From the IMG/VR virus record IMGVR_UViG_3300050513_000092: a DNA stretch of 64,000 nt; one strand, 5' to 3'. The notes below the pieces were generated by a model that saw only the letters and a program-made list of their open reading frames with translations, made no database searches and was not told the origin of the DNA. Positions 1 to 35,500 of this stretch are shown in pieces (the stretch's first letter is position 1; each line of letters opens with the position of its first letter). This stretch comes from an uncultured virus (IMG/VR IMGVR_UViG_3300050513_000092). Its lineage: Duplodnaviria > Heunggongvirae > Uroviricota > Caudoviricetes. The translations under genes and the position numbers were made by a program.

Positions 1-468
1 GACCCTTCCCTTGTCGTCGGTGAGGTCGATGCTGCCCGAGTAGAGCATGCCATCGATCTCGAACTGGATCGGTGCCTCAACGAGCACCGGCATTATCCCA
101 GGAGCAACTTCTCTGTGCTGCTTCTGGATAAGTCTAACACCCTGATCCTTCGCCTCGCCGGGGTCTTCCGCAGGGTCCGTCACCTCCCGCACCAGGCGGT
201 CGTACGAGTCGCTGAAGACGCTCACCACAGCCTCTTCGGGGAGGTCGATCTTGGCGACCAGCTTGCCGAGCATGTTCTCCTCGAACGCCTCGTGAGCGGC
301 GATGCCGAGGGACTGCTTGATGGTGGGCGGCGCCTTCAGGTTCTTGACGTAGGCGTACTCCCATTGAACGCCACACCGCAGGAAGGTCGTGATCGACGAG
401 GCTGACAGGATGAGGCGGCCATCCGCATATTCGAGCTCGTCGAAGCCGTCGTCATCGTCCAGGCTCAC
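1..468 (-). CDS. RecB-family PD-(D/E)XK exonuclease (Cas4-like), runs off the left edge
   Basis: Not in the ORF track. Manual translation from GTG at 468 gives MSLDDDDGF...LSASSITTFLRCGVQWEYAY...GIAAHEAFE...VEAPIQFEIDGMLYSGSIDL, the PDDEXK_1 pattern. Confidence 0.8.
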   Translation of the reverse strand, partial: MSLDDDDGFDELEYADGRLILSASSITTFLRCGVQWEYAYVKNLKAPPTIKQSLGIAAHEAFEENMLGKLVAKIDLPEEAVVSVFSDSYDRLVREVTDPAEDPGEAKDQGVRLIQKQHREVAPGIMPVLVEAPIQFEIDGMLYSGSIDLTDDKGRV

Positions 469-1706
469 GGGTACTTCCACCCTGATCCATCTGGATCTGG
501 AACCAATCGCGTCGTCGATCTCGTGAGCACAACCCGCGGCCCGGCAGTGCCCTCGGTGCCACCGCACCAGCACGAGATGGTGTAAGGGACCTCACCGTCG
601 CCCAGGACCGTGATGTCCGCGCTGCACCAGCCTCCGTAGTAGGCCGAGTGGTAAGAGACCGGGTGGGGGCACCACGCGCAGGCTAGGTCTTCTTGTCGGG
701 TGCTGCCGTCCCTGTCATCCATCGCGGGTCAGTGGATCGGTTCGCCGGAAGCTTCCCGGTCCGCCTTGTCTGGCTCTTGCTTGGCCGCTCCGGCAGCGGG
801 CTCTGCTTCTTCTTCTCCATCGGGTTTCTCCTCGAAGCACTTGGCGGGGTGGAGGTTGTTGAAGCCTGCCACGAGCGGCGCGACCTTGTCGACCGTGACG
901 GTGGCGTTGACGAATGCCTCGCAGGTATCGCAGAGGAGCTGGAGCTGGACCTTGGCGGTCATGGCAGCGGCTCCGGGCAAGGGATCTTCCACGTCCCTTC
1001 GATGCCCTCGGGATCTGGCATGAGGTGGGCAGGCTGGAAGCGGTGCGCCACGATGGCGTCATGGTCGAAGGTGACCGTGCCCTTGTTGCCCGGCAGGGGC
1101 ATGACCTCGAGGTACTCCGTCTCGACCCACCTCGGGCGTCCGCACTCTCCGCAGACCAGCGGCAGGTCGTGGTGGTCGCAGGTCACAGCTTCTTCCAGTA
1201 CTGGACGATGCGACCATTGTCACGGCTGGTTTCGCGGTCATAGGGCCACATCGTTGGGAGCCAGGGCTTGCCGTCGGTGGGCTCGCCATCGGGTCCGGGC
1301 TGCGCTGAGGAGTAGTAGACCTGGACCCATGTCTCCGGCAGTCGCCTCGTGAGGCTGGCAATCACCCGATTTCCCCACCAGACAGCAGCGACTAGGGCGA
1401 GTCCGAACGCGACCACGATGAAGAGCGCAACGTCTTCGCTCACATCTGCTCCAGGATGTCGCGGCCGAATGGTGGCAGCGTCGCGGCGAGCTGGCGCAGC
1501 CAGGCGCGGCGGCGCTGGCCGAGGTTGTGCAGGACGTGCGGCCGCAGCACCGAGACCTGGTTCTGCCTGACGAGCTCGAGGATCTCGATCTTGGCCCGCT
1601 GGTAGGCGGCCGAGTCGTCGAGGGCGAAGCGCGCGACGTCGGTCCAGCGCTTCAGCTCGTAGGTGAGCTGCTCCTGGGAAATCGCCCCGAGGCTGGGTCG
1701 CGGCAA
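465..1706 (-). CDS. Five small coupled hypothetical genes (465-722, 729-962, 959-1186, 1183-1443, 1440-1706); several carry CxxC motifs, one has an N-terminal TM helix
   Basis: Overlapping stop/start junctions; AGGAGG upstream of 1706. Confidence 0.6.
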
Positions 1707-1906: not shown

Positions 1907-3199
1907 CTACCGCAGGCCCGCCCATCTGCCCACCCTCGAGTTGCGGAGCTCGAACGGTGCGCTCGCCAGGAGCGACCGCACCCTGGCCCTGTCTGCGGCA
2001 GCAAGGCTGGCAGGCAGGCGAATGCCGAGATCGTGCAGCGCGGTGCGGTAGGCGAAGACGTGCTCGTAGAAGATCCTCAGAGCTGTTCGTTCGCGGTCCG
2101 GATGTCGTCCCCAGACCACCGCATCGGACACCTTGGGCCACGATGGTCTGGAGTCGAACACGAGCTTCAGGAAGCGCCGCAGCCCTGAGCGGGTCATCCT
2201 GCGGTCAGACCAGTGGATCGTGCCCTGACGGTCGATAGCGCCGCGTCCATGATCCCTGCGGAAGCAGCCATCGAAGCAGACCTCGACCTCGTAGCGCAGG
2301 GCCAGGTCGCGGTAGGTGTGGCCCTTCATGGCCGCTCCAGGTAGAGGATCTCGAGCCTGACGTGGTAAGCCCGCTGGCACCCATCGCAATCGGTCGGCTC
2401 GCCGTCCTCGTAGTGATCCTGTAGGAGTCGCTCGCGCTCTTCAGCGAGCAGTCCCAAGGCAATCGGGGTGGCGTTCTGGGGTAAGCCGGCCACCTGGCCG
2501 ACCGGATCTGCACTGTCGTTCATCTCGTACCTCCGATGGTGGGATGCGGACCCGCGATGCTCGCCTCCGAACGCTCGAGGGCGATGGCGGCGCGGACCCT
2601 GGCCTCGAGCAGGAGGAACGCCGGGCGGTCGACCTCCTCGGGATTTGTGGCATGCCGACGCGAGCGGAATGGGCCGTGGGCCAGACGACCGGCCAGGCTG
2701 GCGACCAGCTCGGCCTCGACCTCGGACAGCAGGGCGACCCACTGGCTGCGGTTGCCGCGGCTCTCGGGAGCCGTGAACTTGCGCTCCAGCAGCTCGAACA
2801 CCGGGTCGCTGCGGATGCGGGACCAGCAGCGCACCGGGATGCGGACCTCGATCATCGGTGCGCGAGCACCTTCGCCTTGGGCCAGCGCCGACAGCGCTCG
2901 GCCAGCCACTCCAGGACATCGAGCGCCCCCTCCAGGTCGCCCCAGCCGTTCTCCGGCTCCCATTGCCGGAAGTAGGCTGGATCGGCCTCGATGGCGGCGA
3001 TCCCGCGCTCCAGGAATGGCAGCAGGTCGGAGGCAAGCGGGTGCTCGTCGATGATCTCGCCGAAGGTGTGCTCACCGTCTGGCTCGACCGCATCTGCCCA
3101 GATCCGCCCGACGTTGCTGGTGTAGTTGCGGTCCCCATCCTCGAGGTCGGCGAGCGCCTCACCGCCGACGTCGGCGACGAAGTGGAAGTCGTAGCTCAT
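1907..3199 (-). CDS. Four hypothetical genes (1907-2329, 2326-2523, 2520-2855, 2852-3199)
   Basis: ATGA-type overlaps; starts trimmed to Met codons with an RBS. Confidence 0.6.
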
Positions 3200-3633: not shown

Positions 3634-4760
3634 GACTTCCTCACCCCGACCTTCTGCCCGGGATGAGCTCGCTTCCAGGCTGCCGAGCGGGCGGCCTTCT
3701 CCGCGCGAGCTCGCTCACGATCACGCTTGGCCCTGGCCCGGGCACGCGACTCGGGCGTGCTGCGATCCACCAGCGCGTCTCGCTGGCGGTAGATGGCGCG
3801 TGCCACCTTGTCGGGCAGCACCAGGCGGGTCAGCCCGCCTGAGCCGTCCGTAACCTGGAGGAAGATCAGGAAGCCGTCCTCCTCGCTGCGAAGCGTCTGC
3901 ACCACGGCGGTCGTGACGCTGTTGACGATGGGGACGACCTGCATGATGGTCGTCGCCTTGGTGGCCCGCACGTCGGGCAATCCGTCGAGGGTGCCCAGCA
4001 CCCGGTCGAATCGGTCAGACATTGGCCGCTCGTCGTTCATTCCCATACCACTCCAGTCCGCTGTGAGGTACGAGCCAACGCCTCCGGCCAGCGGGCCAGC
4101 GAGGCGCGGATCTCCGGGGTGATCGCGAATCGGCTGTCGATCCGGAACCACCGCACCTGCCGCGTGCTGACGGCGCGTGAGAGCGCCGCTGTCAGCGCGT
4201 ACAGGTCATGGATGCCCCCGTACGGGCATTTCACGAACGCCAGCTCCCGACGAGGCCGTGGCCCCTCCGAGACATACGTCACCCGGAAGAGGCGGGGTGG
4301 CGGCGTCAGTCGCGGGTGTACGTCGACCACGGCCCTTCCTCATCTGCGGGGACCACTTCGTCTGCGGGGTAGAGCGTGATCGTCGTCTCGGTGTCCTCCG
4401 GCGTGGCGGGGGTGTACTCGAACTGCTCCTCAATCTCCTGGTCGGCGATGTAGCCGTAGGCGGCGTCGCGCGCCTCGAACTCATCTCTCGCCCCGCGCAC
4501 CTCGATCAGCCAATCGAGGCGGGCCACGATGCGGTAGGTGCTCACCCTTCGATCTCCGCTAGCAGGTCGTCGACCTCGTCGGTGGCGGTGTGGCCGTTGC
4601 CGCACTCCCAATCCGTCGCGTCCATCCGGTCGGTGTTGATGTCCTCCTCTTCGATCAGGGGAAGCTCCTGATCGGTCTCCACCCACTCTTCGGCGGAGTA
4701 GTTGCCGGACACAACGCGCTTCCAGCCCGTGTCGCCGCAGGTCGGGCAGGGGATGCTCAT
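3630..4760 (-). CDS. Four hypothetical genes (3630-4040, 4037-4330, 4306-4545, 4542-4760; the last is zinc-ribbon-like, CPTC...CGNGH)
   Basis: Coupled ORFs. Confidence 0.55.
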
Positions 4761-5290
4761 GCCGCTGTACCTCTGATCGAGCACCACACGATCGCCTGGA
4801 AGTCGCGCGGCGTCTCGCCGACGATCCGCGCTGCCTCCGTGAAGGCGGCCGTGATCCATCGCTGTCGGTGCCGAGTGACCTTGGCGGTCGGCGCCAGGCC
4901 CACGGCCCGCAGGATCCACGAGTCGATCACCACGGCGTCGGTGTCACCCGCGATCGCCGCAGCGAATGCCTTCGTCTTCTGCCCGCTCAGGGCATCCTCT
5001 CCGTCGAGCTCGGCCCACGCCTTGCGGCGGTTGGCCGTGGTCGACACGCTGGGAACCATGTGCCCGGAGAAGCGAGCGGCCACGACCTGCTCGGTCCAGG
5101 CCACGTTGGTTGCCCAGTAGACCCGGGGTGACAGCGCCGCCATCACCCGCGCCACCGTCTCGACCGGGATGCGACCCCGGCCGATCTGGCGGCACAGCTC
5201 CCGCGCCTGGTCGTACCAGCCCCGCCCCTCGTCTCGCTGCTCGGTCGAGGTGGCCTCGTACAGGCGCACCAGCCCATCGACCGGGCTCAT
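4757..5290 (-). CDS. Conserved phage protein (DUF7178-like, helical fold)
   Basis: GRGWY, AALSPRVYWATN, GQKTKAF, VVIDSW and PRDFQAIVW motifs. Confidence 0.6.
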   Translation of the reverse strand: MSPVDGLVRLYEATSTEQRDEGRGWYDQARELCRQIGRGRIPVETVARVMAALSPRVYWATNVAWTEQVVAARFSGHMVPSVSTTANRRKAWAELDGEDALSGQKTKAFAAAIAGDTDAVVIDSWILRAVGLAPTAKVTRHRQRWITAAFTEAARIVGETPRDFQAIVWCSIRGTAA

Positions 5291-5754
5291 TCTCCGTCCT
5301 GGGCTGCGATCATCCCGGTGATCCGAGGATGCGGCGTGATCTGCCCGTGCTGGGCCATCGAGTAGATCTTGTCTGGCGGGCCGATGATGAGGTGGTCCTC
5401 CAGGAAGTGCTCGCTCAGATTGGCGACCACCATGATCTGCCTCGTCAGGTCGAGGTCGATCTTGGTCGGCTTCACGTTGCCGTCCGGGTGGTTGTGCATC
5501 AGCCAGAAGCGATCCGCGCCTGACGCTGCCAGCGCAGACAGGATCACCGGGATGGGTGCCGGGACGGAGTGGTAGTCACCCCGTCCGATCTCGACCACGC
5601 TGCGGAGCTGCGTCTCACCGTCGAAGCAGATGATGTGGAACACCTCCTGCGCCGATGTGAACAGGCCCTCCTTGACGCACATCGACACGATGTCGTCGGT
5701 CGTCTTGATCGGGCCTCTGCGCCGCAGCTCGACGGTCGCGAACTGGTATCTCAT
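5287..5754 (-). CDS. radC: RadC-like JAB/MPN domain protein
   Basis: QEVF...HNHPDGNVKPTKID...DHLIIG JAB metal-binding motif. Confidence 0.85.
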   Translation of the reverse strand: MRYQFATVELRRRGPIKTTDDIVSMCVKEGLFTSAQEVFHIICFDGETQLRSVVEIGRGDYHSVPAPIPVILSALAASGADRFWLMHNHPDGNVKPTKIDLDLTRQIMVVANLSEHFLEDHLIIGPPDKIYSMAQHGQITPHPRITGMIAAQDGE

Positions 5755-6114
5755 GGCTCTCCCACGTGTGCCCAGCCGGTCGGGTAGATCTCATCCTCGT
5801 CCTCGTCGAGGACGGCTACCACCTCACGCCCGCACCAGCAGCGAAGGCCGGTGTCGGCCTCCGCTGCCTGGTCGCGGTTCGGCGCCCCCTCGAAGTAGAA
5901 GGCGTCGTGGTCGTCAGCCGCGCTGGAGATCGCTGTAGGCTGCATGCCGCACGTTCTCCAGTGCCTCGGCGATCTCCGCGCAGACACGGAGCTTCACCAC
6001 TGGGTCGGCGGGCAGGAAGATGCCGAGGATCTCGGTGTCCTCCTGCTCGAAGATCAGGGTGTTGCTCGTGCCGCGCACGCTATCGCCGGGGTCCAGGAAG
6101 ATCTGGTTCCGCAT
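5751..6114 (-). CDS. Two small hypothetical genes (5751-5945, 5914-6114)
   Basis: Coupled ORFs with RBS. Confidence 0.5.
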
Positions 6115-6123
6115 GGGGACCTC

Positions 6124-7131
6124 CTAGTTGCTCAGGGCGACGAGCAGATCCGCCGCCTTCTGCTTCTTGCTGGCGGCGTCGCCACCCAGCAGGATGCTCG
6201 ACGCGCGGTTCTCCGCGGCCGAGACCTCACGCTTGCGGTACTGCGTGCCGTAGTCGATGTACTCGACGATCCCGTTCCACAGCCCGTAGGCCGTGCCCCG
6301 GATGTTGTCGAGGTTGGCGCTGCTCTCGTACATGGCGAGCGCCTTGGCGGCGGGTGCCTTGTCGGGGTGAGCAACGATCACGCGCCGCAGCTCGTCGGCG
6401 CTGAGCTTCAGCGGGTTCACGTCCTTGATCGGGAAGACCTGGACCAGTGTGCGGAGCACGTCCTGGTTGCTGATCTTGGTCAGCAGCATGCGTGCCGCGA
6501 TCTTCTCGAACTCCTCGAGGTACTCGAAGGTCAGGCCCAGCGTGCGCTGCGCCTCCTTGACCCGTGCCTCGACCCCGCTCGTGTGCCGCAGCTTGATCTC
6601 GCTGAGGTGGGATCCCAGCGCTGCGGTGAGCGTGTTCTTGCAGACGACCCGGACCAGGGTGACGAGCGCCCGCAGCGCCATCCGGCCGTCGTGGCCGTTC
6701 ACCACAAGCAGGTACGGCAGCATGGTGCCGTCATCGCCCGCCACCTTGACGTGCTTGGGCAGCTCCATGCTGAGGAAGACGACGCGGCCCTCGCGCAGCG
6801 CGCCCGCCGTCTCGTACTTGGCCTCGCCCGACTCCACGATCGCATCGGCGAAGGCGAAGGCGTCGAGGTTCTGGACGACGTGGAAGCCGGGGCTCACCAC
6901 GCCGAGCGGCTTGCCATCACTCGATCGCACGTTGGCGACCCGGCCGGGGATCTTGATGACCGACCGCTTGGGGTCGATGATGTTGCGGACGAAGATCGGC
7001 TTCTGCACGACCGTCCAGTCCAGCCCAGCGGCGACGATCGCCTGCTCGGCGGTCTGCAACCCGTCGACCTTGGTTCCGAATCCGTGCCAGGGCACATCCC
7101 TGGCGTACATCAGGGTCTCGACTTCAGGCAA
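6124..7131 (-). CDS. DUF932 (TIGR03299-like) phage/plasmid protein
   Basis: TTG start after AGGAGG; VETLMYARDVPWHG, AGLDWTV, YETAGAL, NGHDG, VRVVCKNTL, RHT and GTAYGLWNGIVEYID motifs. Confidence 0.9.
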   Translation of the reverse strand: MPEVETLMYARDVPWHGFGTKVDGLQTAEQAIVAAGLDWTVVQKPIFVRNIIDPKRSVIKIPGRVANVRSSDGKPLGVVSPGFHVVQNLDAFAFADAIVESGEAKYETAGALREGRVVFLSMELPKHVKVAGDDGTMLPYLLVVNGHDGRMALRALVTLVRVVCKNTLTAALGSHLSEIKLRHTSGVEARVKEAQRTLGLTFEYLEEFEKIAARMLLTKISNQDVLRTLVQVFPIKDVNPLKLSADELRRVIVAHPDKAPAAKALAMYESSANLDNIRGTAYGLWNGIVEYIDYGTQYRKREVSAAENRASSILLGGDAASKKQKAADLLVALSN

Positions 7132-8980
7132 CGAGGGCCTCCTTCGTGAGGTATTCGTCGATGCGGGCGAGCAGGGCGTCCAGATCGCCGCCATCAGGTC
7201 TGTGCAGCCCGTGGCTGGCCTTCTCCAGCTCGACGGGCCTGCTCTTGAAGGTGAAGAACTCGCCGGTATGCGACCACTCGAAGGTCAGGATCGGGGTGAG
7301 CGAGTCCTGCGACTCGATATAGCCCACGCCGACGTTGGGCCACTGGTAGTCCACCCTCACGTCGAGGTCGTGTGCTCCAGCGATGGCTACGAGCCGGTCG
7401 AAGAACTTCCCCTGCGTCGTCCTCATGTCTGTGCGTCGTCTAGGCTCACGTCCCAGTCCTCGTACGGGTCTCCGGCGAACCAGCCGGTATCCTCGAGGCC
7501 GAGCTCCAGCTTGTCGGCCACCTTGTCCTCGCTCCAATATGTCTCAGCCAATCCACTCGCCGTCTCTGCGTCCGGTGCGGAGACGCTGATGTAGATGGGC
7601 ACATCGACCGTGACGATGAAGCGGCGGTGCTCATCCACGCGCTGCCTCCTTGATTGCTTCCCGGATCATCCGCGGCACGGCCGCCTCGATGAATACCTGG
7701 AGCTTGAACGGGTACTCGCCGCGCTGGATCGAGCGGACGCTCATCGCGCCGATCTCGACCTCGACGCTCTCATGCGTGATGGGCTGGCTCGGACTGTCGG
7801 GGGCGACAGTCACGTCGACGCCGATCTTCATCGGTCCTCCATGAGGATCCAGTCGGCCCGGTCGCGGGCCGCCTCATCGACCTGGATATCGGCTCCGTTG
7901 GGGCGCCGCTCCCAGGTCTCTCCGTCGCCGTCGATGTAGCGCGCATCCTCCTCGGCGTCGAGCCGAGCCTTGTCGCTGCGGTACAGCCCGCGGTGGTAGG
8001 CGACTTCCTCGTTGAAGATGCGCGCGCACTCGGCGCAGTCGTCGAGGTGCCAGCTCTCGTGGCTCTCGTGGTTGGCGGTCACGGCCGCATCGAACTCAGT
8101 CAAAGGGCACCAGCACGACGATCGGTCCCACGTCTCGGTAGACCTCCAGCAGTGGGCGGTGGTTGTTCTCCTCGGCGTCGCTCGCCAGGATCACTTGCGC
8201 GTCACCGGGCAGTCTGAGCAGCAGCTCGCGCAGCACGGCGACGGTCATCGGGGCAACCGGGTCCATCCGGGCTCGGTGCGTCTTGAACATCACGCGTCCT
8301 CGTCGTCGAACTCGGGCACTCCGGCCCACTGGAGCAGAACGACATCGCTCGGGTCGATGTGCTCTGCGAGGCTTTGCAGCTCGGCGAGCTCGCTGTAGCT
8401 GATGCGCTCCTCCTCGATCTCTCCGCGCAGGTATTCGAGTCTCTCCTCGATGGTCATGCCTCTACCTCGAAGCTGAACGGGTCCATGCGGCGTTCGATGT
8501 CGAACAGGTTCACCCGCTCGACCACCGACCTCGGCAGCATGATGTCCTGGCTGTGATCCCAGCCCCTCCTGCGGAAGTGCAGCTTCATGTGCTTCTTCTC
8601 GCCTTCTGGGCTCGGATCAGTGGTAATGACGCTCATCGGGGTTCCGAACGCTCGCCTCGCTGCCACGGCGACCGGGCAGCAGATCGCGATCGAGTAGTCC
8701 CCGTCGATCAGGTCCATAGACCTGTCGATGTCCTCTTGCGTGACCTCAATCAGGACTGACATTCGACGCACCTTCCTCCGCTATCCACCACATCGCCCCT
8801 CGGGTCGAGCGGCACCAGCAGCCCGCACGAGGAGCAGGTCTCGTAGTCGGCTCGACGGGCGTATGCCTCTTCGAGCTTCTCCCACATAGCCTTCAGGTCC
8901 GTGCCGTCGCGCGGCCTGATCGGCGTTGCGAGGATCTCGCCCTCGTCCGAGGGCATGCTGTAAATCGGTAGGTCAGTCAT
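7124..8980 (-). CDS. Run of eight small, mostly acidic hypothetical genes (7124-7426, 7423-7638, 7631-7831, 7828-8103, 8096-8293, 8290-8457, 8454-8762, 8750-8980)
   Basis: Coupled ORFs; 8290-8457 was translated manually (MTIEERLEYLRGEIEEERISYSELAELQ...WAGVPEF). Confidence 0.6.
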
Positions 8981-15402: not shown

Positions 15403-15559
15403 TGCCGACACACTCGGCAACGCTCGCGTCAGGGTGGCGAATCTGTCGACACTCTCGCCCCGATGTGCTGACACATCGCGTGAAATGTGCTGACACTGTC
15501 GACACATTCCGCTAGGATGTGCTGACACACCGGCCAGGATGACCGGCGAGTGTCGACAC
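15403..15559. repeat. Array of seven TGYYGACAC direct repeats in the divergent intergenic region
   Basis: Copies start at 15403, 15444, 15466, 15488, 15497, 15520 and 15551. Confidence 0.85.
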
Positions 15560-15587
15560 AACGAGGCCGAATGTGGCGCGACTCCGA

Positions 15588-15746
15588 TTGGACCTCACGA
15601 CCACGCTGCGTGGCTGGACCTTCGCGCGCAACGGGCACTGGCGCGGCAAGACCTGCCACGACCGCGCGTTCTGGGATCGGCACTGGCACCTGGGCGCCTG
15701 GGTGCTGTGGGCGCCGTCTCACGAGGAGGGTGGCCGGGACCGATGA
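15588..15746 (+). CDS. Small Trp-rich hypothetical protein
   Basis: Manual translation MDLTTTLRGWTFARNGHWRGK...; ATGA overlap with the next gene. Confidence 0.4.
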   Translation: MDLTTTLRGWTFARNGHWRGKTCHDRAFWDRHWHLGAWVLWAPSHEEGGRDR

Positions 15747-16039
15747 AAATCAGCGTCCGCAACTTCACCCGCGAGCCGAGCACCTACATCGACCGCGTGG
15801 CGCAGGGCGAGAGCTTCGAGCTGACCCGCTACGGGAAGCCGGTCGCCATCATCAGCTCCACCAGCGAGACGGCGGTCAGCGCGACCATCAGCACCCAGGT
15901 CGAGCACACCTCAACGGCCCCCACTCACCGACCGGCGCCCGAGCCGCTCGAGGTGAAAGGTGGATCATGGGCCGACCGCAACCCCAAGGCGGCGGCCACC
16001 GATGCGATCCTGGGCGCGTCCCGGGCTCGGAAGCGATAG
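15743..16039 (+). CDS. Phd/YefM-type antitoxin-like DNA-binding protein
   Basis: MKISVRNFTREPSTYIDRVAQGESFELTRYGKPVAII matches the Phd N-terminal domain. Confidence 0.75.
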   Translation: MKISVRNFTREPSTYIDRVAQGESFELTRYGKPVAIISSTSETAVSATISTQVEHTSTAPTHRPAPEPLEVKGGSWADRNPKAAATDAILGASRARKR

Positions 16040-16052
16040 ACGTGGAGGCATC

Positions 16053-16223
16053 ATGCCCAAGTGTTATGACGGCCGACGCCACCGCTGGGTGACCCGGCTG
16101 CGCTGGCCCAGGCAGGTCGAAGAGCTGTGGTGCCGCCGCTGCGGCGAGTGGAAGCTCGACGTCCTGGCGGGATCCCCGCGCCGCGGGGCCGACGAGGAGC
16201 TCCTGATGGTGGTGGACATCTGA
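16053..16223 (+). CDS. Small Cys/His (zinc-finger-like) protein
   Basis: C...H...CRRC; GGAGG RBS. Confidence 0.55.
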   Translation: MPKCYDGRRHRWVTRLRWPRQVEELWCRRCGEWKLDVLAGSPRRGADEELLMVVDI

Positions 16224-16597
16224 TGTACGAATACGCTGCAACGATCCTGCGCGTGGTCGATGGGGACACGGTGGAGGCTGAGGTCGATCTCGGCTTCGAC
16301 GTCCGCCACCGCATGAAGCTGCGCCTGTTCGGGATCAACGCCCCGGAGATGAAGACGCCCGAGGGGCTGCCCGCCAAGCAGCACCTCATCGCGCTCCTGC
16401 ACCCGGGGGCTCCCGCCGAGGCGCTGGCCTTCCTCGCGACCCAGTCGGTCGAGGTCACGATTCGCACCCAGAAGGATCGCCAGGAGAAGTACGGTCGCTA
16501 CCTGGCCGACATCTTCGTCGGGCTCAACACGCCGGGCCAGATCTGGGTCAACCGGCGCATGGTGGACGACGGCTTCGCGGTCGTGTACGAGCCATGA
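16223..16597 (+). CDS. Thermonuclease (SNase) family protein
   Basis: RVVDGDT, RLFGINAPE and KYGRYLA motifs. Confidence 0.9.
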   Translation: MYEYAATILRVVDGDTVEAEVDLGFDVRHRMKLRLFGINAPEMKTPEGLPAKQHLIALLHPGAPAEALAFLATQSVEVTIRTQKDRQEKYGRYLADIFVGLNTPGQIWVNRRMVDDGFAVVYEP

Positions 16598-17478
16598 CCC
16601 CGCCCACTCCGGCGACGGCGGCGAGCCGTCACGTTTTATCGAGGATGCACCCGCTGACTGCTCGTGGCATGAAGTGGGTCGGCATCGAGTTTCAGACCGA
16701 GCAGGACTGGAAGGAGGCGCTGGTCGCCATCGAAGCCGAGGCGCGGGCCGAGGCGGAGGGGCTGCTGCGGACGCTGGTGGAGGCACAGAACCCCGGCTCG
16801 ACTTACTACCGCGATGAGTGGCAGGAGGCCACAACAGCAGCCGAAACATTCTTGAAGGAGAAGGCATGACCCGCCGCAGTCCGTTTTACGCCTCCACCGA
16901 TCAGCCCGTGAAGCGCGTGAAGTTCATCCCGGTCAAGGATGGCGATTTGGTGGAGCTGGGAGCCACCAGCATCCCCGGCGCCACAGTCGGCTCCTCCGGG
17001 TATGCCGAGCAGATGGCAAAGCGATACCCGCACACCTTCATCGGCTTCAAGCCGTCAACCGGCCCGAAGGCCGCCGGATGGATCGTGGTGCTGGTGGATG
17101 AGGCCCACGTTTCCAGCCAGCCGGTGAAGAAGCTGCAGCGTCCACGACGCCGATTGAAGGCAGTCGGATGAGCCTCGCCGCCCACGCCACGCCAGCAGAG
17201 GAGACGTGATGCTGCCAGAGGAACGGGAGCGGGCGGACTTTATCGCAGAGGCGTCACGGCGTTCTATGCACCGCCTGATGGCAACGGCGCGATCCGGGCG
17301 ACAGCCGATGGATCATGGCGAGGCGTTCGAGATTGTCGTGAAGGGTCAGCATGGTGAGGCGTCCGTGTCCATGCAGTTGTCAGATACCGAGGCCGTGCTG
17401 CTAGAGATGCAGGAGGGAGCCCCCTGCTCCTTGTGCGGCACTGATCCCTGCTCGTGGTCGCGGGAGCCGCAGCCATGA
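16594..17478 (+). CDS. Hypothetical genes 16594-16869, 16866-17171, 13-aa mini-ORF 17168-17209 and 17209-17478
   Basis: Chain of ATGA/TGATG overlaps. Confidence 0.6.
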
Positions 17479-18242
17479 CCCCGCCGCCCGACGCGCTGGC
17501 GGCGACATCGGAGCGATCTCGCTCTGAAATCGCGCTGGCGGAGGCGCTGGAAGTGCTTGCCGCGATTGAGCATGAGCAGTGGGAGAAGTGGTCCCGCGAG
17601 GTTGCCGAGCAAGGGTTGACGCCTGAGCGGATCGAGCGATGGCATCGCTACTGGGTGCCCTACGCCGATCTCGATGACGCGACGCAGGAGCATGACCGCA
17701 AGTGGGCGCGTCGCTCGCTCGCCGCCCTCTCCGCCGCAGGCTGGGCGGTGGTGCGGACGGAGCCGGTTCGGGTCGCTGTTCACGAAGCCGAGCACCGGCC
17801 CGCGGACCATGAGCCCGCCGCAGCGGAAGGGGGGCTGCGAGAGGCGACGCCACAACTCCGTGACTGGGAGGACCTGCCCCACGGCGTCTACGACGGCGCG
17901 AACCGCTACGACGACGACAACGAGGCCGTACTGCACCTATGGGCGCATGGGCAGTCGTGGGACCTGCGGACCTCCTTGGAGGTCATCGGCCCGGTGTGGA
18001 GCGAGGTCACCGCGGAGGAGATGTGGGCCAACTATCGCGGCAAGTGGGTCGCCATCGACAACGACGAGATCATCGCCAGCGGTGACACTGCCACGGAAGC
18101 CTATGAGGGCGCACAGGCCGCTGGTGTAGAGGTCCCGCTGCTCCATCGCGTTCCCGAGAACGGAACCCTGCACTTCTACGGCATGCGGGTGCTCGCCCGC
18201 CTCCCCGCCGCCCACGCCGCGCCAGCAGAGGAGGAAGGGTGA
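17475..18242 (+). CDS. Modular cassette protein 1 (RyR-like domain + DUF5678-like domain between constant linkers)
   Basis: LAAIEHEQW...VPYADLDDATQEHDR is RyR-like; YRGKWVAIDNDEIIASGD is DUF5678-like; carries repeats A-E. Confidence 0.75.
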   Translation: MTPPPDALAATSERSRSEIALAEALEVLAAIEHEQWEKWSREVAEQGLTPERIERWHRYWVPYADLDDATQEHDRKWARRSLAALSAAGWAVVRTEPVRVAVHEAEHRPADHEPAAAEGGLREATPQLRDWEDLPHGVYDGANRYDDDNEAVLHLWAHGQSWDLRTSLEVIGPVWSEVTAEEMWANYRGKWVAIDNDEIIASGDTATEAYEGAQAAGVEVPLLHRVPENGTLHFYGMRVLARLPAAHAAPAEEEG

Positions 18243-18376
18243 TGTGGCGCTACTACCCGCTGACTGTCGGAGCGATTGTGCTGATCCTGCTCACTCAGGG
18301 CTGGGGCTGGGCAGTTGTCCTACCCGGCCTGTGGATGCTAGAGCGGTGGGGGCTATGGCACGACGAGATGAAGTGA
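18242..18376 (+). CDS. 44-aa hydrophobic membrane peptide
   Basis: Manual translation MWRYYPLTVGAIVLILLTQGWGWAVVLPGLWMLERWGLWHDEMK; overlaps both neighbours. Confidence 0.6.
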   Translation: MWRYYPLTVGAIVLILLTQGWGWAVVLPGLWMLERWGLWHDEMK

Positions 18377-19122
18377 CCCCGCCGCCCGACCCGCTGGCGG
18401 CGCTGGCGGAGGCGCTGGAACGGATGCGCCGATTGGTGTCCTCGTCCTATGACGGCGGCGTGAACGGCACTTGCTATGAGTGCCCGTATGCCTCTCCGCC
18501 GCTTGAGAAGGACGGCAGCGTTGCCGACTGGCGGGACATATCGAACGACCCGACCGAAGCGTACTTCCGCTGCTCGCTGCCGGGGCGCGACAACGCTGCG
18601 GTGGTGTGGGGTGAGTACGCGCCCTGCACTGAAGCGGAGTGGTTCGAGGCGCACCGGAGCGCCGCCCTCGCCGCCGCAGGCTGGGCGGTGGTGCGCAAGG
18701 GCAACTTCGAGGTCAAGGTCGCGGGGCATAGCGTCACGGATGCGATTTGGCCGCACAAGGCCGCGCAGGCGGGGGAGGGGCTGCCTGTGTCTGGTACTCG
18801 CGTCCTAGACGATGACGGCAACGAGGTCCGCTTTACGAGGGAGCCACAAGCGCGATGGCCCGCGCAGGCGGGGGAGGGGCTGCGAGAGGCGGTACAAGCC
18901 CTCTTTGACGAGGAAGATGCCGCTGACTATTCGGCCATTCGCTGGAACGTAGCATTCGATGCGCTCCGCGCTGCCCTTGCCCGCCTCCCCGCCGCCCCTG
19001 CCGCGCTGGAGGACCACGAGCACGACTGGCAGACCTTCACCGGGCCACATATTCAGGGCAGCGCGACCATCTGCTCGATCTGCGGCCTAATCGCCACGCC
19101 AGCAGAGGAGGAGGCAGGGTGA
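18373..19122 (+). CDS. Modular cassette protein 2 (Cys-rich and HxH...CxxC modules)
   Basis: GTG start MTPPPDPLAALAEALE; carries repeats A, B, C twice, D and E. Confidence 0.75.
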   Translation: MTPPPDPLAALAEALERMRRLVSSSYDGGVNGTCYECPYASPPLEKDGSVADWRDISNDPTEAYFRCSLPGRDNAAVVWGEYAPCTEAEWFEAHRSAALAAAGWAVVRKGNFEVKVAGHSVTDAIWPHKAAQAGEGLPVSGTRVLDDDGNEVRFTREPQARWPAQAGEGLREAVQALFDEEDAADYSAIRWNVAFDALRAALARLPAAPAALEDHEHDWQTFTGPHIQGSATICSICGLIATPAEEEAG

Positions 19123-19283
19123 ATCTCTTGCAACGTCGCCTCGTCGTTGGCATCGTCGGTCTGGCGTGGATCACCGCTGCGTGTCTCGGTTGGGTGACCA
19201 CATGGGTCAATCGGAGCGACACCTATTTATTCGGTGGACTGCTCGTGCTATTCGCCGTATTCATCTGGAGGCCCCAGCCATGA
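19119..19283 (+). CDS. 54-aa two-TM membrane protein
   Basis: Manual translation MNLLQRRLVVGIVGLAWITAACLGW...LFGGLLVLFAVFIWRPQP. Confidence 0.6.
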   Translation: MNLLQRRLVVGIVGLAWITAACLGWVTTWVNRSDTYLFGGLLVLFAVFIWRPQP

Positions 19284-19287
19284 CCCC

Positions 19288-19653
19288 GTGTTGACGCCCG
19301 ACGAGATCGTCGCGGACATCGAGTCCATGAAGCCTCGCAAGGGCAAGGTCACGATCTACCAGTCGTGGCCGCGCATGATCCTAGAGCGCGAACGGGAGGC
19401 TGTCGCCCTCGCCGCCGCAGGCTGGGCGGTGATGCCCGCGCAGGCGGGGGAGGGGCTGCGAGAGGCGCTGGAAGAAGCGATGGACTTGGGCATCTATCCG
19501 AAGAACGGTGGACCCAAAGGTGGCCCGCGCACGCGCTATCAGGACGGCTGGAACGCGGCCTGCATCCAGATTGCCGAGGCGTTTGAGAAGGCGTGGGAGG
19601 ATGCCCTTGCCCGCCTCCCCGCCTCCCCTGCCGCGGGGGAGGATGGGACGTGA
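19288..19653 (+). CDS. Modular cassette protein 3
   Basis: Carries repeats B, C and D; YQDGWNAAC module; start codon uncertain. Confidence 0.65.
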   Translation: MLTPDEIVADIESMKPRKGKVTIYQSWPRMILEREREAVALAAAGWAVMPAQAGEGLREALEEAMDLGIYPKNGGPKGGPRTRYQDGWNAACIQIAEAFEKAWEDALARLPASPAAGEDGT

Positions 19654-22281: not shown

Positions 22282-22650
22282 ATGACCGACTACACGCCGT
22301 CAGTCGAGCGCGAGTTCGACGCGGGCCATGACCGCATCGAACTATTCGATTCCTGCCGTCACGACGGCCACGGCCACCACTGGCGGATCCGGGTCAGCGT
22401 CCAGGGCATCTTCGACCCGCGCTCCGGACGCTCATACCGAGTGGCAGAGCTCGACCGCGACCTCGACACCCTGGTCCTGGAGATCGAGGGCAAGAATCTC
22501 ACCAAGATGCTCCCCGGGGGGATCCCCACGCCCGAGGGAGTAGGGTTGTGGGTGATCGAGCGACTCGTGGTGGATCACCCCAAGATCACTGAGGTGGTGG
22601 TGTGGCTGGACCAGCGGCACAGGTTCTCGCTGAAGCGGGAGCCTCGCTAA
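22282..22650 (+). CDS. queD: 6-carboxytetrahydropterin synthase / PTPS family
   Basis: EFDAGH, C...HGHHWRIRV and PTPE motifs. Confidence 0.8.
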   Translation: MTDYTPSVEREFDAGHDRIELFDSCRHDGHGHHWRIRVSVQGIFDPRSGRSYRVAELDRDLDTLVLEIEGKNLTKMLPGGIPTPEGVGLWVIERLVVDHPKITEVVVWLDQRHRFSLKREPR

Positions 22651-26836: not shown

Positions 26837-27616
26837 GTGATCTCAGAGATGGCGATCATCGAGCTCGATACCGACATCCGGAGCGGAGCCATCATCGACG
26901 AGTTCGCCATCGTGCGGCGCGGAGCGACCGTGGGTCGCAGGACACACCTCTATCCCGGCGTCGTGGTGGAGGAGGGTGTCTGGATCGGGGACGATGTGAC
27001 GATCTTCCCGGGTGCCTACCTGGGCAAGCAGCCGAAGGTGGCGGGCGTCATCGCCAGGATGCCGCACGTGCAGAACGGGCAGACCCGGATCGAGGACGGA
27101 TCCGTGATCGGGACGCACGTTGTCATCTACGCAGGCGTCGTGATCGAGCCCAAGGTGCTGATCGGCGAAGGGGTCACGATCCGAGAGGACACCGAGATCG
27201 GGTCGGAGACCGTGGTCGGCAACAACAGCACGATCCAGAATGGAGCCAGGATCGGGCGCCGCTGCAAGATCGTCGACCTCTCGCACATCTGCAACGACGC
27301 GGTGATCGGCGACGAGTGCTTCATCTCGGTCGGCGTCTACATGATGAACGACAACTCCATGCAGCGCGGAGGCGAGGTCGTCGGGCCGAAGATCGGCCAG
27401 CGAGTACGGATAGGCGGTGGGGCGCTGCTGCTGCCGGGGATCCGGATCGGCAACGACGCCATCATCGCGGCAGGGGCCGTGGTGACGAAGGACGTTCTGC
27501 CAGGGTCGACGGTGATGGGGATCCCCGCTCGGGTGCCCGCGAATCGTCCGGTAGCTCCCGACCTGTTCGGCGAGTTCTTTGAGATGCCTCGGGCGGAGCC
27601 CTGGCCGCAGGAATGA
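26837..27616 (+). CDS. Hexapeptide-repeat N-acetyltransferase (WbpD/WlbB-like)
   Basis: Left-handed beta-helix repeats; IAAGAVVTKDV...MGIPAR. Confidence 0.9.
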   Translation: MISEMAIIELDTDIRSGAIIDEFAIVRRGATVGRRTHLYPGVVVEEGVWIGDDVTIFPGAYLGKQPKVAGVIARMPHVQNGQTRIEDGSVIGTHVVIYAGVVIEPKVLIGEGVTIREDTEIGSETVVGNNSTIQNGARIGRRCKIVDLSHICNDAVIGDECFISVGVYMMNDNSMQRGGEVVGPKIGQRVRIGGGALLLPGIRIGNDAIIAAGAVVTKDVLPGSTVMGIPARVPANRPVAPDLFGEFFEMPRAEPWPQE

Positions 27617-28410
27617 TCCGGGTCGAGGAACCAATCGAGGAGATCGCGGCCAAGACCGGCACCAGCCTTCCGAACCGGGGTCCATACACCGACTGCACCG
27701 GAGTCATGGTCGCCTGGAATGAGGAGGCGCGGATGCCCGCACTCCTCAAGCTGATGAAGCGCTGGTTCTCGAATCTTGTCGTCGGTGTGCAGGAATCGAC
27801 CGATTCGACGCTCAAGATTGCCGAATCTTTGGCGAACCGCCCCGGAGACCAGGTGCTCCGCGAGCCGCACCTGGGCTATGGCGACGCGTCGATGGATCGG
27901 ATCGTGTCTGCGGTGCGGACTCCGTGGCTATTCGACATCGCCTTGGATGAGATGCCGAGCAAGGAGCTGCTCGAGTCGATGTGGACCGCGACAGCCTACG
28001 CGGAATCGGTCGGTGCAGAGGGAGTCTGGATCCCGTTTCACACGCTGGTTGACGGAGTCGAATCGGTCAGCGAGCAGCAGGATCCGATGTCATCTGGGCA
28101 CCTACGGCTCTTTCGCAGGAGCCTCGGCTGGCCGAAGACCCTGCATTCCCGGCCGAGCGCCAGGATCGAGCTGTGGTGGCCGTACGGCCGCATCGACCAT
28201 GTACGCAGCCTCGACGAGATGATGCAGGACTACCTGCGATACTTCCAGATCGGAAAGGGCAATCGCGGCTGGGAGGCTCACAACATCCTGATGATGCATG
28301 ACGCCTGTGTTGGTGTTGCCGCAGAGAAGGGCTGGCCTTACGTGCAATCATTTGCATGGTGGTCAGCCGTGAGAGACCTCGCATTCGAGGGAAAGGAGCC
28401 AGATGGCTAG
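27613..28410 (+). CDS. GT-A fold (GT2-like) glycosyltransferase
   Basis: MVAWNEEARM, ESTDSTLKIA, WLFDIALDE (degenerate DxD), HLRLFR and LHSRP motifs. Confidence 0.7.
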   Translation: MIRVEEPIEEIAAKTGTSLPNRGPYTDCTGVMVAWNEEARMPALLKLMKRWFSNLVVGVQESTDSTLKIAESLANRPGDQVLREPHLGYGDASMDRIVSAVRTPWLFDIALDEMPSKELLESMWTATAYAESVGAEGVWIPFHTLVDGVESVSEQQDPMSSGHLRLFRRSLGWPKTLHSRPSARIELWWPYGRIDHVRSLDEMMQDYLRYFQIGKGNRGWEAHNILMMHDACVGVAAEKGWPYVQSFAWWSAVRDLAFEGKEPDG

Positions 28411-29055
28411 CAAGACGGCCCTCGCGAAGAAGCCAGCAGCGAAGAAGGCACCCGCCAAGGCAGCTCCCGCCGCCAGCGGCGGAGCCATCGACATCGGACC
28501 GAAGCCGCTGGTCATCCACCAGGGGATCACGGTGACAGGAAGCAAGTTCCCGCCCTCGGAGCCTGCGGTCATTACTATCTGGCCCGACCCGCGCGGAGCG
28601 CTGGAGCTGATGACCGATCCCTTCGGTGAGGTCCAGGTATCGTTCATGCCCGTCGTGGACGGGAATCATCACGTCGCAATCTCATGCGGCGGCGTCAAGG
28701 CCGAGCGCGACTTCGAGGTCGCGGCGGAGTAGAGGAGAAGCTCATGGTGGCGATCGCAGTCGACCCAGCGGCTCCCCGCGCGACCATCGACATCTGCAAG
28801 GTGTCGGTCAGCGGAGCCGATTACGCTCGTGGCCCCCACAAGACGGGGGGCGAGTTCCGCTACTACATCGAGGCAGAGCGGCCCTCCGGGTCGGACATCG
28901 CCAAGAACCTGAAGAGCCACGTCTTCGACGTCTCGCACGGCGGACTTCACGACTGGCTCAGCGTCATCTTCGACGAGCCAGGGAGCTGGAACCTCGTCCT
29001 GCGTGATGCGAGCAACGATTCCCAGGTTGCGGCGCAGGCGCTCACCGTGAGCTAG
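28403..29055 (+). CDS. Two small beta-rich proteins (28403-28732, 28744-29055), possibly Ig-like virion proteins
   Basis: ORFs with RBS; Lys/Ala-rich N-terminus; beta-strand pattern. Confidence 0.55.
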
Positions 29056-29056
29056 A

Positions 29057-29089
29057 CCCTGTTCAAGTCGACAGGGCATCTGTTATCGT
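29057..29089 (+). promoter_or_regulatory. Putative extended -10 promoter with a CTGT-N8-ACAG inverted repeat
   Basis: CCCTGT-TCAAGTCG-ACAGGG followed by TGtTATCGT. Confidence 0.5.
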
Positions 29090-29099
29090 GCGCCTCACG

Positions 29100-29275
29100 A
29101 ATCTCCTCTCCGTGCCGAATGGACGGCTAGCGGTCAAACGCTAGCCGTGCCATCCCCGGAATAGGAGAGGCGGACCCCCGAGCTGCCATTCAGCCCTGAC
29201 CCAGGGTCCGCCCGCACAAGCGTAGCACGCTTGTTCGCCTTTCACCATCAGCCCGCAGCGTTTCGCTGCCTGGCG
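29100..29275 (+). ncRNA. Candidate structured leader or ncRNA upstream of the glycosyltransferase-capsid operon
   Basis: Four perfect stems plus an enclosing stem within about 175 nt. Confidence 0.45.
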
Positions 29276-29285
29276 TGGAGGAACG

Positions 29286-30578
29286 ATGCGCGTCCTATGG
29301 ATCGGTGACGGTGGCAGCGCCACCGGCTTCGCTCGAGTTGCTCATGCCCTGGGAGATCGCCTGGTCGAGCAGTACGGACACGAGGTCCATCTCCTAGCGA
29401 CCAACTACAAAGGCGACCCCTACCCGACCAAGGTCCAGATGTACGTCCCCACCATCCATGATGCAGGGGACACCTACGGGATGAGCCGGTTCATCGAGCT
29501 GGCCGCCAACGTCATGCCTGACGTGATCGTCACGCTCAACGACCCGCAGGTGCTCTACGCCTGGTTGCTGAACAACCGCTTCGATCCCGAGCGGCTCATC
29601 ATCAAGCGGTTTCCGGTCTTGGCCTACATCCCGATCGATGGGTACAACAACCCAAAGATGTACGACCCGTTGGGTCAGGTCACGAACCGAGTCGCGATGA
29701 GCAAGTTCGGCCTGGAGGCCATGCCGGAGGCGAAGCTCGTCTACCACGGCGTCGACACGGATCTCTTCTGGCCGGTCTCCGGGGAGCGGCCGATCACCAT
29801 CAGCCGCGGCGATGTGCTTCGGACCAAGAGGGACTGCAAGCGGGCCTTCGGTTTCGATCCGGACTCGTTCTTGATCGGCAGGGTCGATCGCAACACCGGC
29901 CGCAAGGACTTCGCATCCACCTGGAAAGCCGTGCTGCCGGTGATGCGTCGCCATTCAGACGTCGTCACCTACTTCCACTGCAAGCCCAAGGACGAGCGAT
30001 CGGGTGTCAACCTCCCGGCGCTCTTCAGCCGCGAGCTCGACCTGCTGGATCGGTTCCGCGTGCCGAGCCGGTTCATCACCAACCAGGGGTACAGCCAGCA
30101 GGATCTCAACGCCATCTACAACGCCTTCGACTTGTTCGTGTCGACAAGCCGAGGTGAGGGCTTCGGGCTCACGCTGGCCGAATCGTTGGCCTGCGCCGTT
30201 CCAGTCATCGCCCAGAACGTATCTGCGATCCCCGAGGTCGTGGGTCCTGGTGGCGAGCTGATCGAACCCGGGCGAGAGATCACGGTCCCCTTCGGACAGG
30301 ACCATTGGCTCGCCGACATCGGCGCCTTCTCCGAAGCCATCGAACGTGCCTACGCATCGCGGCGCTGGCGTCGGGATGCCGGGCAGGCAGGTCTGGAGCA
30401 CGTCACCCGCTCGTTCGTCTGGGACGAGGCAGCGGCAAGGTTCAACGAGTACATCGAGGTGCTAGCGCATGACGCTCACGAAGCCCAAGCCGCAGTCGAC
30501 CCAGGAGTTGCTCGAGTCCCTCGAGCCAATGGTGGGAACCGTGCTGCTCGGCGACGAAGGGGAGCACGAGCGACCTGA
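29286..30578 (+). CDS. GT4 (GT-B) glycosyltransferase
   Basis: TGFARV, YHGVD, RNTGRKD, YNAFDLFVSTSRGEGFGLTLAESLAC motifs. Confidence 0.95.
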   Translation: MRVLWIGDGGSATGFARVAHALGDRLVEQYGHEVHLLATNYKGDPYPTKVQMYVPTIHDAGDTYGMSRFIELAANVMPDVIVTLNDPQVLYAWLLNNRFDPERLIIKRFPVLAYIPIDGYNNPKMYDPLGQVTNRVAMSKFGLEAMPEAKLVYHGVDTDLFWPVSGERPITISRGDVLRTKRDCKRAFGFDPDSFLIGRVDRNTGRKDFASTWKAVLPVMRRHSDVVTYFHCKPKDERSGVNLPALFSRELDLLDRFRVPSRFITNQGYSQQDLNAIYNAFDLFVSTSRGEGFGLTLAESLACAVPVIAQNVSAIPEVVGPGGELIEPGREITVPFGQDHWLADIGAFSEAIERAYASRRWRRDAGQAGLEHVTRSFVWDEAAARFNEYIEVLAHDAHEAQAAVDPGVARVPRANGGNRAARRRRGARAT

Positions 30579-34035: not shown

Positions 34036-35500
34036 CAACTCAACTGGCCTCGCGGTCAAGACACTTACTACCGAGTTCGTCCGGGGGAAGCTCATTGATA
34101 CGGGCGGGACGAACGAGGCCGCGGTTTCGGCCGCGGGTCGCCTCTCGGTCGATGCCTCGGGCGTCGCCGTGCCGGTGACGGACAACTCAGGCTCCCTGAC
34201 GGCTGACCTGCTGGGCCAGTACGTCGGTGATGCTGCGGCGACGGCGACTCCGAACACGCTGATGATCTCGGGCCTTGCCAACGCGGCAGCGCCGTCCGAT
34301 GTCAGCGCCAACAACGACGCGGTCGCGATGTGGATGCTGCGGAACGGTTCACCTGTCGTGAACCTTGCTTCGGCGGGCACCCTCATCACCATCGGCCAGA
34401 AGGCCATGGCTTCGAGCTTGCCCGTGGTCATCGCTTCGGACCAGAGCGCGCTTGCGCTGGCCGCGCAGTACGTTGGGGATGCGGCGGCGACAGCCACTCC
34501 GACTGGCCTGATGGCCGTCGGCCTGGCGAATGCGGCGGCACCGACCGACGTCTCTGCCAACAACGACGCGGTTGCGATGTGGATGCTTCGCAACGGGTCG
34601 CCGGTCGTGAACATCGCCGCCAACGGCACGCTGCTCACGAACATCGGGCAGACCATCGCCACGGCCCAGCATGTCCGCATCTCGGATGGCACGACCCTGG
34701 CGACAGTCCGTGACCTGGCGGCGAACGATGCGCTGAACGTCGCCATCGTGGATGGCTCGGGCAACCAGATCACGTCGTTCGGCAGCGGCACGCAGTACGT
34801 CGGAGACGCCGCAGCGACGTCGACGCCGACCGGCACGATGAGCATGGGCCTCGCCAATGCGGCGGCACCTTCAGACGTGTCGGCCAACAACGACGCGGTC
34901 GCCATGTGGATGCTGCGGAATGGTTCGCCCGTGGTGAACCTGGCCTCGGCAGGAACGCTCATCACGATCGGGTCGAAGACCTCGGCGAACAGCCTCCCGG
35001 TGGTCATTGCCTCGGACCAGGGGTCCGTCGCGGTCACTCCGGCAGCGAACAGCTCGATCAACGTCAACCAGATCGTCGGCTCGGCGCCAGGTGCGACGAA
35101 CCCGCTCCCGGTCCGCTTGACCGACGGTGCGGCGTTCTACACGCTCAAGCCGACCTCGGCGTTCTTCAGCACGCAGACTTCAGCCGCCCTGGGCGCTGGG
35201 GCGAACGTCACCCTGACGCACTACGTCACCTCCGGCAAGACGGGTCAGCTCTGGGGTGCGGACGTCACTTCGACCGTCCCGATCAAGATCGAAATCGGTA
35301 CGATCCTGACCGGCTCATTCACGGCTCGGGTCGTGGCCTTCGCCCTGGCCGGGCAGCTCCTCCAGTGGCGTGCGCCAGATGACACCTTCATCACCCGGGC
35401 CAGCTCCGACGCGACGACGGGCTTCGGGGTGAGGATCACCAACAAGGACGCATCGGTCGCGGCCGACGTCTACAGCACCGGGTACTGGGACGAGGTCTGA
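34028..35500 (+). CDS. Virion decoration/fibre protein with three internal repeats
   Basis: QYVGDAAAT..P...GLANAAAP.DVSANNDAVAMWMLRNGSPVVN occurs three times (34217, 34466, 34793). Confidence 0.75.
   Translation: MADNSTGLAVKTLTTEFVRGKLIDTGGTNEAAVSAAGRLSVDASGVAVPVTDNSGSLTADLLGQYVGDAAATATPNTLMISGLANAAAPSDVSANNDAVAMWMLRNGSPVVNLASAGTLITIGQKAMASSLPVVIASDQSALALAAQYVGDAAATATPTGLMAVGLANAAAPTDVSANNDAVAMWMLRNGSPVVNIAANGTLLTNIGQTIATAQHVRISDGTTLATVRDLAANDALNVAIVDGSGNQITSFGSGTQYVGDAAATSTPTGTMSMGLANAAAPSDVSANNDAVAMWMLRNGSPVVNLASAGTLITIGSKTSANSLPVVIASDQGSVAVTPAANSSINVNQIVGSAPGATNPLPVRLTDGAAFYTLKPTSAFFSTQTSAALGAGANVTLTHYVTSGKTGQLWGADVTSTVPIKIEIGTILTGSFTARVVAFALAGQLLQWRAPDDTFITRASSDATTGFGVRITNKDASVAADVYSTGYWDEV

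Follow-up and report, generated by a model that had tools for sequence, protein, structure and literature searches.

Short in-frame DNA linkers recur around unrelated modules in an accessory gene cluster of an uncultured tailed phage

The origin of the many short, mosaic accessory proteins of phages is an open question, and Botstein's idea that linker sequences underlie such mosaics has been directly supported mainly for whole genes (PeSL cassettes) and tail adhesins. The same question is raised, below the level of whole genes, by a locus of the uncultured virus IMGVR_UViG_3300050513_000092 (IMG/VR), of which we analysed a stretch of 64,000 nucleotides (nt), hereafter the window. Between positions 17168 and 19653, three neighbouring genes carry the same short DNA repeats (linkers) in a fixed order, while the sequence between the linkers differs from gene to gene; this array is restricted to a single accessory cluster, 2.5 kb long, in a phage of about 69 kb. 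A sequence-only reading of the window had named five linkers, A to E, and our comparison reproduced its pairwise identities (A 28/29, B 34/35, C 33/33, D 33/34, and E 26/27), the main pairs reaching E values of 4e-11 to 1e-5 in a self-BLAST. A sixth repeat, A' (peptide ALAEALE; 17532 = 18400, 21/21), follows A, and the unit of the array reads A-slot-B-slot-C-slot-D-slot-E-[small whole open reading frame (ORF)]-A. All linker copies located by their peptide are in the frame of their gene. The 8.2-kb tile with the array had 17 short direct repeats, each of the seven other tiles 0 to 4; of 17 exact repeats of at least 17 nt in the 64 kb, 11 lie inside the array. We think it likely that the linkers are targets of ordinary short-homology recombination and conversion, by which domains and small whole genes are swapped.

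The array, all of it on the plus strand, opens with a mini-ORF of 13 codons (17168..17209) that holds E alone (17174-17203) and leads, by GAGGAG and a GTGA overlap, into a small ORF of 90 amino acids (aa) with a CxxC motif (17206..17478) in the E-to-A slot. Gene 1 (17475..18242, 255 aa) contains A (17476-17504), A' (17532-17552), B (17720-17755), C' (17813-17846), D (18192-18213), and E (18203-18242), D running into E. The two domains previously named for it were recovered, namely a RyR/R12-like module that ends in linker B (17553..17753; E 2e-5, below the Pfam cut-off) and a DUF5678 module (18033..18158; Pfam E 1.1e-9). A small hydrophobic ORF (18242..18376, 44 aa) fills the next E-to-A slot. 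Gene 2 (18373..19122, 249 aa) contains A+A' (18374-18420), B (18660-18695), a partial C (18761-18784), C (18858-18891), D (18972-19006), and the E core (19092-19122); its slots hold a Cys-rich mobile module (A'-B, 18421..18660), a 25-aa C-to-C segment, and an HxH..CxxC module (D-E). The following E-to-A slot is again filled by a small hydrophobic ORF (19119..19283, 54 aa). Gene 3 (19288..19653, 121 aa) begins with GTG at 19288 and an N-terminal module (19288-19401), followed by B (19402-19431), C (19434-19467), a slot, and D (19602-19635). As proposed, its B-C slot is empty, ATG alone separating the two linkers; an A-like start at 19280, before the gene, is an out-of-frame remnant (MTPC-stop).

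Linker E contains GAGGAG, and at its end the stop codon overlaps the start of an unrelated ORF (44-90 aa); the stop of this ORF in turn overlaps A's start codon, ATG or GTG. The sequence-only reading was thus right that E supplies this ribosome site, but the ORF that it serves is the small unrelated one and not the next linker gene. The overlaps suggest translational coupling.

The linkers are conserved as DNA, synonymous positions included, as had been claimed. Among codon pairs encoding the same residue, 122 of 129 were identical, compared with 50 expected from the codon use of the phage, although this count is inflated and to that extent argues less for recombination, since the repeats were chosen by DNA identity. 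All four mismatches in the A-E pairs alter the residue, and synonymous sites are unchanged, rare codons included. An any-codon search of the viral collection for the B peptide AL[AS]AAGWAVV returned no recoded copy, only three known contigs, and pattern scans for the linkers returned three of 2.9 million viral contigs and three metagenome contigs. A match to the E pattern in L020 was rejected as chance similarity over a 21-nt stretch. Because diverged protein-level versions exist (P0037, P0038), the linkers are lineage-specific, homogenised copies of commoner helix-end motifs.

The same linkers were found in a second, unrelated phage. G004 (L063, 1-16360) is a complete 16.2-kb tailed phage with a 126-nt terminal repeat and genes for a terminase, a portal, a fused protease-capsid protein, a short tape measure, an M23 endolysin, and an exonuclease. 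It has the linkers and one holin-like gene (70%) in common with the window and nothing else: all 11 same-strand exact runs of at least 17 nt lie within linkers, the longest measuring 49 nt (A+A' 34, B plus extension 49, B 36, D 32, and E 23 nt). This extension of B reaches position 17779 in gene 1. The linker gene of G004 has the order A-new insert-B-D-new insert-B, in agreement with the expectation of shared linkers but different inserts in relatives. Of 69 linker codons compared between the phages, 63 are identical, three differ synonymously and three change the amino acid. The preceding gene of G004 ends in E and has three linkers in common with a further window gene (16594..16869, plus strand, 91 aa), F (16606-16623, T.ATAA), G (16724-16742, AIEAEA), and H (16744-16758, RAE.E), which are visible only by this comparison (matches of 19-24 nt at 92-100%, with different inserts). 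A variant of the G004 gene (P0020) has 10 extra aa inside D, and a second G004 assembly (L028) is identical over its length. G004 sequence was present in all four metagenome runs examined, each containing the window phage. G004 is unusually small and co-occurs with the window phage. A structure model of the G004 protein was set aside as too weak (predicted local distance difference test, pLDDT, 49).

No relationship was detected between the contents of the slots, and the earlier claim that they are unrelated was upheld. A blastp comparison of 17 slots (13 from the window, four from G004) gave matches of 5-6 residues only (best E 0.076 over 5 residues), and a profile-profile comparison of four A'-to-B modules with their linkers removed gave probabilities of at most 1.8%. 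The A'-B modules of gene 3 and G004 have a 7-column Y-x-x-W stretch in common (0 of 40 shuffles as good), possibly a faint common helix cap before B. Homologues of three slots in other DNA have one slot only in common, the likeness ending at its edge. For the Cys-rich module 12 homologous proteins were found, alike in that slot alone; the N-terminal module of gene 3 has four homologues, which diverge at the start of B; and for the RyR module there are three close proteins and a further 23 viral loci, some of them nearly duplicates of one another, in which it is found by itself or beside different partners. Scans of the viral collection with the Cys-rich and gene 3 modules yielded the two sister contigs only, and comparison with the ESM Atlas did not lead to a usable name for either of two modules.

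Variation at the linkers was followed in five sister assemblies (G002, G003, L027, L029, and L031) compared with the window. G002 (17.5 kb) differs by one single-nucleotide polymorphism (SNP), by an altered patch in C of gene 3, and by two deletions, of 33 and 111 nt, that keep the frame; G003 (8.9 kb) has no SNP and the patch only; L027 has the two deletions only; L029 and L031 are identical to the window. The patch (19439..19451, plus strand) is of the gene 2 type (C) in the window and two assemblies and of the C' type in two others. With three substitutions and a compensating indel, the C' allele in gene 3 equals the gene 1 copy over 34/34 nt. Because several substitutions and a compensating indel copy a paralogue, the patch points to an exchange among linker copies, by conversion or by patch recombination. 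Contigs of run X5 break on either side of the patch, and in these mixed samples phasing between patch and deletion sites is unreliable. The deletions (plus strand) remove 33 nt of the 90-aa ORF (17399-17431) and a 111-nt segment of gene 1 consisting of C' and 78 nt (17815..17925; 3-nt junction microhomology). Both break at the sole two copies of a 14-mer (17388-17401 and 17921-17934; 13/14 alike, peptide EAVL), a pattern that was picked post hoc. A bipartite restriction site at the 14-mer was rejected, as CGAG-N6-CTGC occurs 16 times compared with 8 expected.

If the linkers serve as recombination targets, as we think likely, coding sequences of 20-60 nt would be used by a phage annealase or by host RecA, and exchange would take place within a single genome as well as among phages that co-infect a shared host. 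Since the linkers keep the frame and those at the ends bring the stop/start overlap and the ribosome site, a domain or a small gene could be swapped by crossover or patch repair at a linker, and the product would still be a translated protein. The same traffic would keep the linker copies letter-identical. New modules would enter first by rare microhomology at linker-like helix ends and would then spread via the linkers.

Several results weigh against this account. Neither deletion runs from linker to linker; their junction homologies are 2 and 3 nt, and of the four deletion ends only the left end of the 111-nt deletion lies at a linker. The five sister assemblies, which may derive from few samples, showed no slot gained, lost, or swapped from one linker to another, and, the 27-nt extension of B excepted, no slot was found with the same DNA in two linker contexts. 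The linkers were found in two phage lineages only, B having no match in the GTDB genomes. No annealase was found among the 179 ORFs of at least 150 codons, and the ERF family matched neither of the two records searched.

An array of the same kind was seen in an unrelated phage. One of the 23 other RyR-module loci (L056, 55% G+C content) has six short repeats in order, with unequal spacing and in adjacent genes; the four intragenic repeats checked are in frame, surround unrelated inserts and are unlike the window linkers in sequence. This array occupies 1709-3131 and 3619-3963 of L056 and includes a linker made of a stop and a ribosome site. In a virus of 28% G+C (L051, 2485-3270), three repeats of 21-23 nt stand at gene starts and ends beside a RyR-like gene. 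We tentatively extend the recombination-target account, with distinctly less confidence, to the possibility that the linkers are a plug standard of unrelated phages of one host lineage, kept letter-identical as crossover sites. Counter-defence domains, for example a RyR module that binds cADPR, and small genes would then move between the 69-kb and the 16-kb phage and form new multi-domain proteins, and other host lineages might have standards of their own, as in L056.

The linkers might instead be protein parts first, forming the ends of small, insert-tolerant helical domains (A'...B, C...D); illegitimate recombination would occur anywhere, selection would favour joins at helix ends, and DNA identity would reflect recent copying. 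Linker B is probably also a structural element, because it completes the C-terminal motif of the RyR profile: with B the Pfam match extends to profile position 89-90 of 91, compared with 81-82 in three homologues without B. In P0037, A-slot-B forms a single natural domain, diverged in sequence; several slots have a faint Y-x-x-[LW] motif just before B; and, according to PMC13232231, the phage RyR-domain protein RyDEP uses its first helix and its last to dimerise. Fixed synonymous sites beside residue-changing mismatches, the lack of recoded copies of B, and the C/C' patch, which requires a DNA template, all argue against this explanation, which we consider rather unlikely as a replacement for the recombination-target account. 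The two can hold together, the protein-part reading being either its main rival or its complement.

Plain triplication of one gene, followed by very fast divergence between conserved motifs, would account for three units with a period of ~0.9-1.0 kb and the same motif order. It would also have to account for slots of 0 to 114 codons with 55-86% identical homologues in other phages and no detectable likeness to each other. Since the slots are unrelated and their homologues have the slot only in common, triplication is very improbable and already largely refuted.

Could a dedicated enzyme act on the linkers, as in an integron or a shufflon? The fixed order, the frame and the junction signals look designed, and both deletions break at copies of one 14-mer, with the post hoc choice of that pattern in mind. 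Diversity-generating retroelements, shufflons, and integrons all link repeats with protein variation. Unlike them, the window (64 of ~69 kb of the genome) showed no reverse transcriptase, integrase, or resolvase-invertase in any of the 179 six-frame ORFs of at least 150 codons, and no template-variable repeat pair; nor did the array show inverted sites, attC-like hairpins, or a single type of site. The linker types have no common core. None of eight linker folds clearly beat its shuffles (best z -2.0), two of 21 linker-type pairs reached p <0.05 and the types were not convincingly complementary, Rfam gave no matches, and promoter-like sites numbered one in 6 kb (0.8 expected), none of them inside the array. 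The linkers of L056, wholly different in sequence, also speak against such a system, which we regard as highly improbable.

The sequence-only reading had gone further and proposed a special diversification system with no recombinase visible. This was not borne out: an exonuclease gene leaves the window at its edge, and the two deletions do not run from linker to linker. The gene encodes a PD-(D/E)XK exonuclease (4..591, minus strand; Pfam PDDEXK_1 E 2e-9), is cut by the left edge and continues into the ~5.2 kb beyond; it is a candidate for the start of a phage recombination module. Such exonucleases are commonly paired with annealases. The window also has a RusA-like gene, and in G004 the exonuclease directly follows the array. 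According to PMC3945230, minimal pairing requires 23-27 nt for Red-beta and 31-34 nt for RecA; of the 11 exact runs within the window, five have at least 23 nt, and of the 11 between the window and G004, six do. Because exonucleases and a RusA-like gene are present and the exact runs reach these lengths, the lack of a visible recombinase is no argument for a new enzyme.

Mis-joining of the repeats of two co-occurring phages during assembly is the least probable explanation: short-word Logan contigs do break at linkers and show three joints (17203-18380, 17779-18979, and 18417-18660), but these match G004's own gene, with 30 letters on the short side, the window order recurs in four other assemblies and the G004 order in a second, and both C alleles, by reasoning, depend on words that neither genome contains at any other place. 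The joints were accordingly rejected as rearrangements of the window genome.

What the linkers might carry is suggested by the first module of gene 1, which looks RyR/R12-like on signals that are each moderate or weak and all agree. It scored 25-26.8 bits against PF02026 (cut-off 27.4) and E 1.5e-7 against PDB sequences, and the top fold matches of its model (pLDDT 81) were all RyR, at E 0.36 or worse. It has the four ligand-residue places of RyDEP, one of the anti-Thoeris RyR proteins: H33, W36, H57, and D74 of gene 1 stand where RyDEP has H75, W78, H100, and D117. H57/D74 align with H100/D117, and H33-x-x-W36 corresponds to H75-x-x-W78 by motif and spacing. The second His is kept in two of 24 family rows, and a direct alignment with RyDEP is weak (22 columns, E 0.05). 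PMC13232231 describes phage proteins with a RyR domain that bind Thoeris signals or cleave them, via these RyDEP residues; six of eight homologues bound 2'/3' cyclic ADP-ribose (2'/3'cADPR) and none of the eight cleaved it. The module may be a sponge or a glycosidase for Thoeris signals, a role to which we give slightly less than an even chance. Unlike RyDEP, it is fused to other modules, and no genes for rebuilding nicotinamide adenine dinucleotide were seen in the window.

The window contains the terminase, portal, capsid, and tail genes of a tailed phage, whose full genome of 69,204-69,235 nt closes at its ends into a circle. Five public runs labelled rhizosphere metagenome contain the stretch, four of them marked as its possible sources. 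No close cultured relative was found in INPHARED (terminase identity at most 28.5%; DNA comparison without a meaningful match, 15 records, best E 0.06), where gene 1 had two weak matches in its RyR region and gene 2 had none. A search for the host in the GTDB genomes gave two short spurious matches for the RyR module besides the negative result for B. The array is part of a run of small rightward genes with the endolysin and terminase downstream. Directly upstream of the array (15743-16597) lie a lone Phd/YefM-like antitoxin gene and a staphylococcal-nuclease-like gene, and the gap between the divergent gene arms holds two 45-nt direct repeats (15462-15560) with GTGCTGACAC cores, possibly an operator or an origin. 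At 4760-7194 there are DUF7178, RadC-like JAB, and DUF932 (TIGR03299) genes, as in mobile-element early regions. A 490-aa gene of the structural region contains a repeat of ~180-230 nt in three copies at ~77% identity (34217-35020). Genes for a QueD-like synthase, a hexapeptide acetyltransferase, two glycosyltransferases, a DegT aminotransferase, and a Gfo/Idh oxidoreductase (22282-22650, 26837-30578, and 59122-61211) form a sugar or base modification set, part of which lies inside the head-gene block.

With defined sequences of 20-60 nt, two unrelated phages, and a natural conversion event, the linker idea becomes testable below the gene level. Should counter-defence domains prove to be among the cargo, such arrays could help to find more of them, each slot being a candidate. 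In the literature searched, which left most subscription papers out of reach, no paper on in-frame linker shuffling was found, and the accessible parts of PMC10684548 and PMC8614690 describe domain mosaicism with no linker mechanism.

The nearest precedents are the lambdoid ea genes, the mosaicism of which is treated in PMC10834534. The sequence-only reading had cited Ea22/ead genes as a loose precedent; the precedent holds, and it is closer than that. In P22 (eaa/ead/eae), HK97 (gp37), HK022 (gp35-37), and HK620 (hkaE-H), segments of 24-62 nt, 76-97% identical between phages and some of them at gene ends, surround unrelated inserts. As in the window, portable domains of small accessory proteins are joined at short conserved DNA segments. 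The lambdoid genes have one within-genome repeat (26 nt, P22), while here five to six linker types occur in 2-4 copies each, and, unlike the ea segments, the window linkers recur almost unchanged in a phage built on another architecture. Genes 1-3 gave no Pfam, PHROG, or NCBIfam match to the Ead_Ea22/DUF551 signature. The array does not lie at the lambdoid exo-xis position either, as it stands upstream of endolysin and terminase, with no integrase in the 64 kb.

In the PeSL cassettes of T4-type phages, discussed with Botstein's linker model in the accessible part of PMC2839356, short repeats likewise serve homologous recombination of small genes, and there, too, no dedicated recombinase is identified. 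PeSLs are intergenic units of a promoter and a stem-loop that move whole genes, while the window linkers are coding, also cut inside genes and lack the sigma-70-like promoter and stem-loop. Mini-circles are reported for PeSLs in the same source; here the evidence consists of contigs. Repeats at change points, as in PeSLs, were seen between the two phages, while the sister strains showed one patch and no linker-to-linker indel. In the T-even adhesin gp38, constant in-frame motifs alternate with variable segments as they do here, and exchanges are reported to fall within or near conserved glycine-rich motifs that double as the structural core (accessible part of PMC3157838). gp38 is one essential virion protein with loop-sized segments, while here the cargo of several paralogous accessory genes consists of entire unrelated domains and entire genes; the array genes, which had no tail or adhesin match, do not fit a tail-fibre adhesin with glycine-rich motifs. 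The array works like the Botstein model, the ea mosaics, the gp38 motifs, and PeSLs, and by the features compared it is a member of none. What is new is the density of linkers, with five to six coding types repeated in one genome and acting at both domain and gene level, together with their near-identity in a quite different phage and linker conversion among sister strains.

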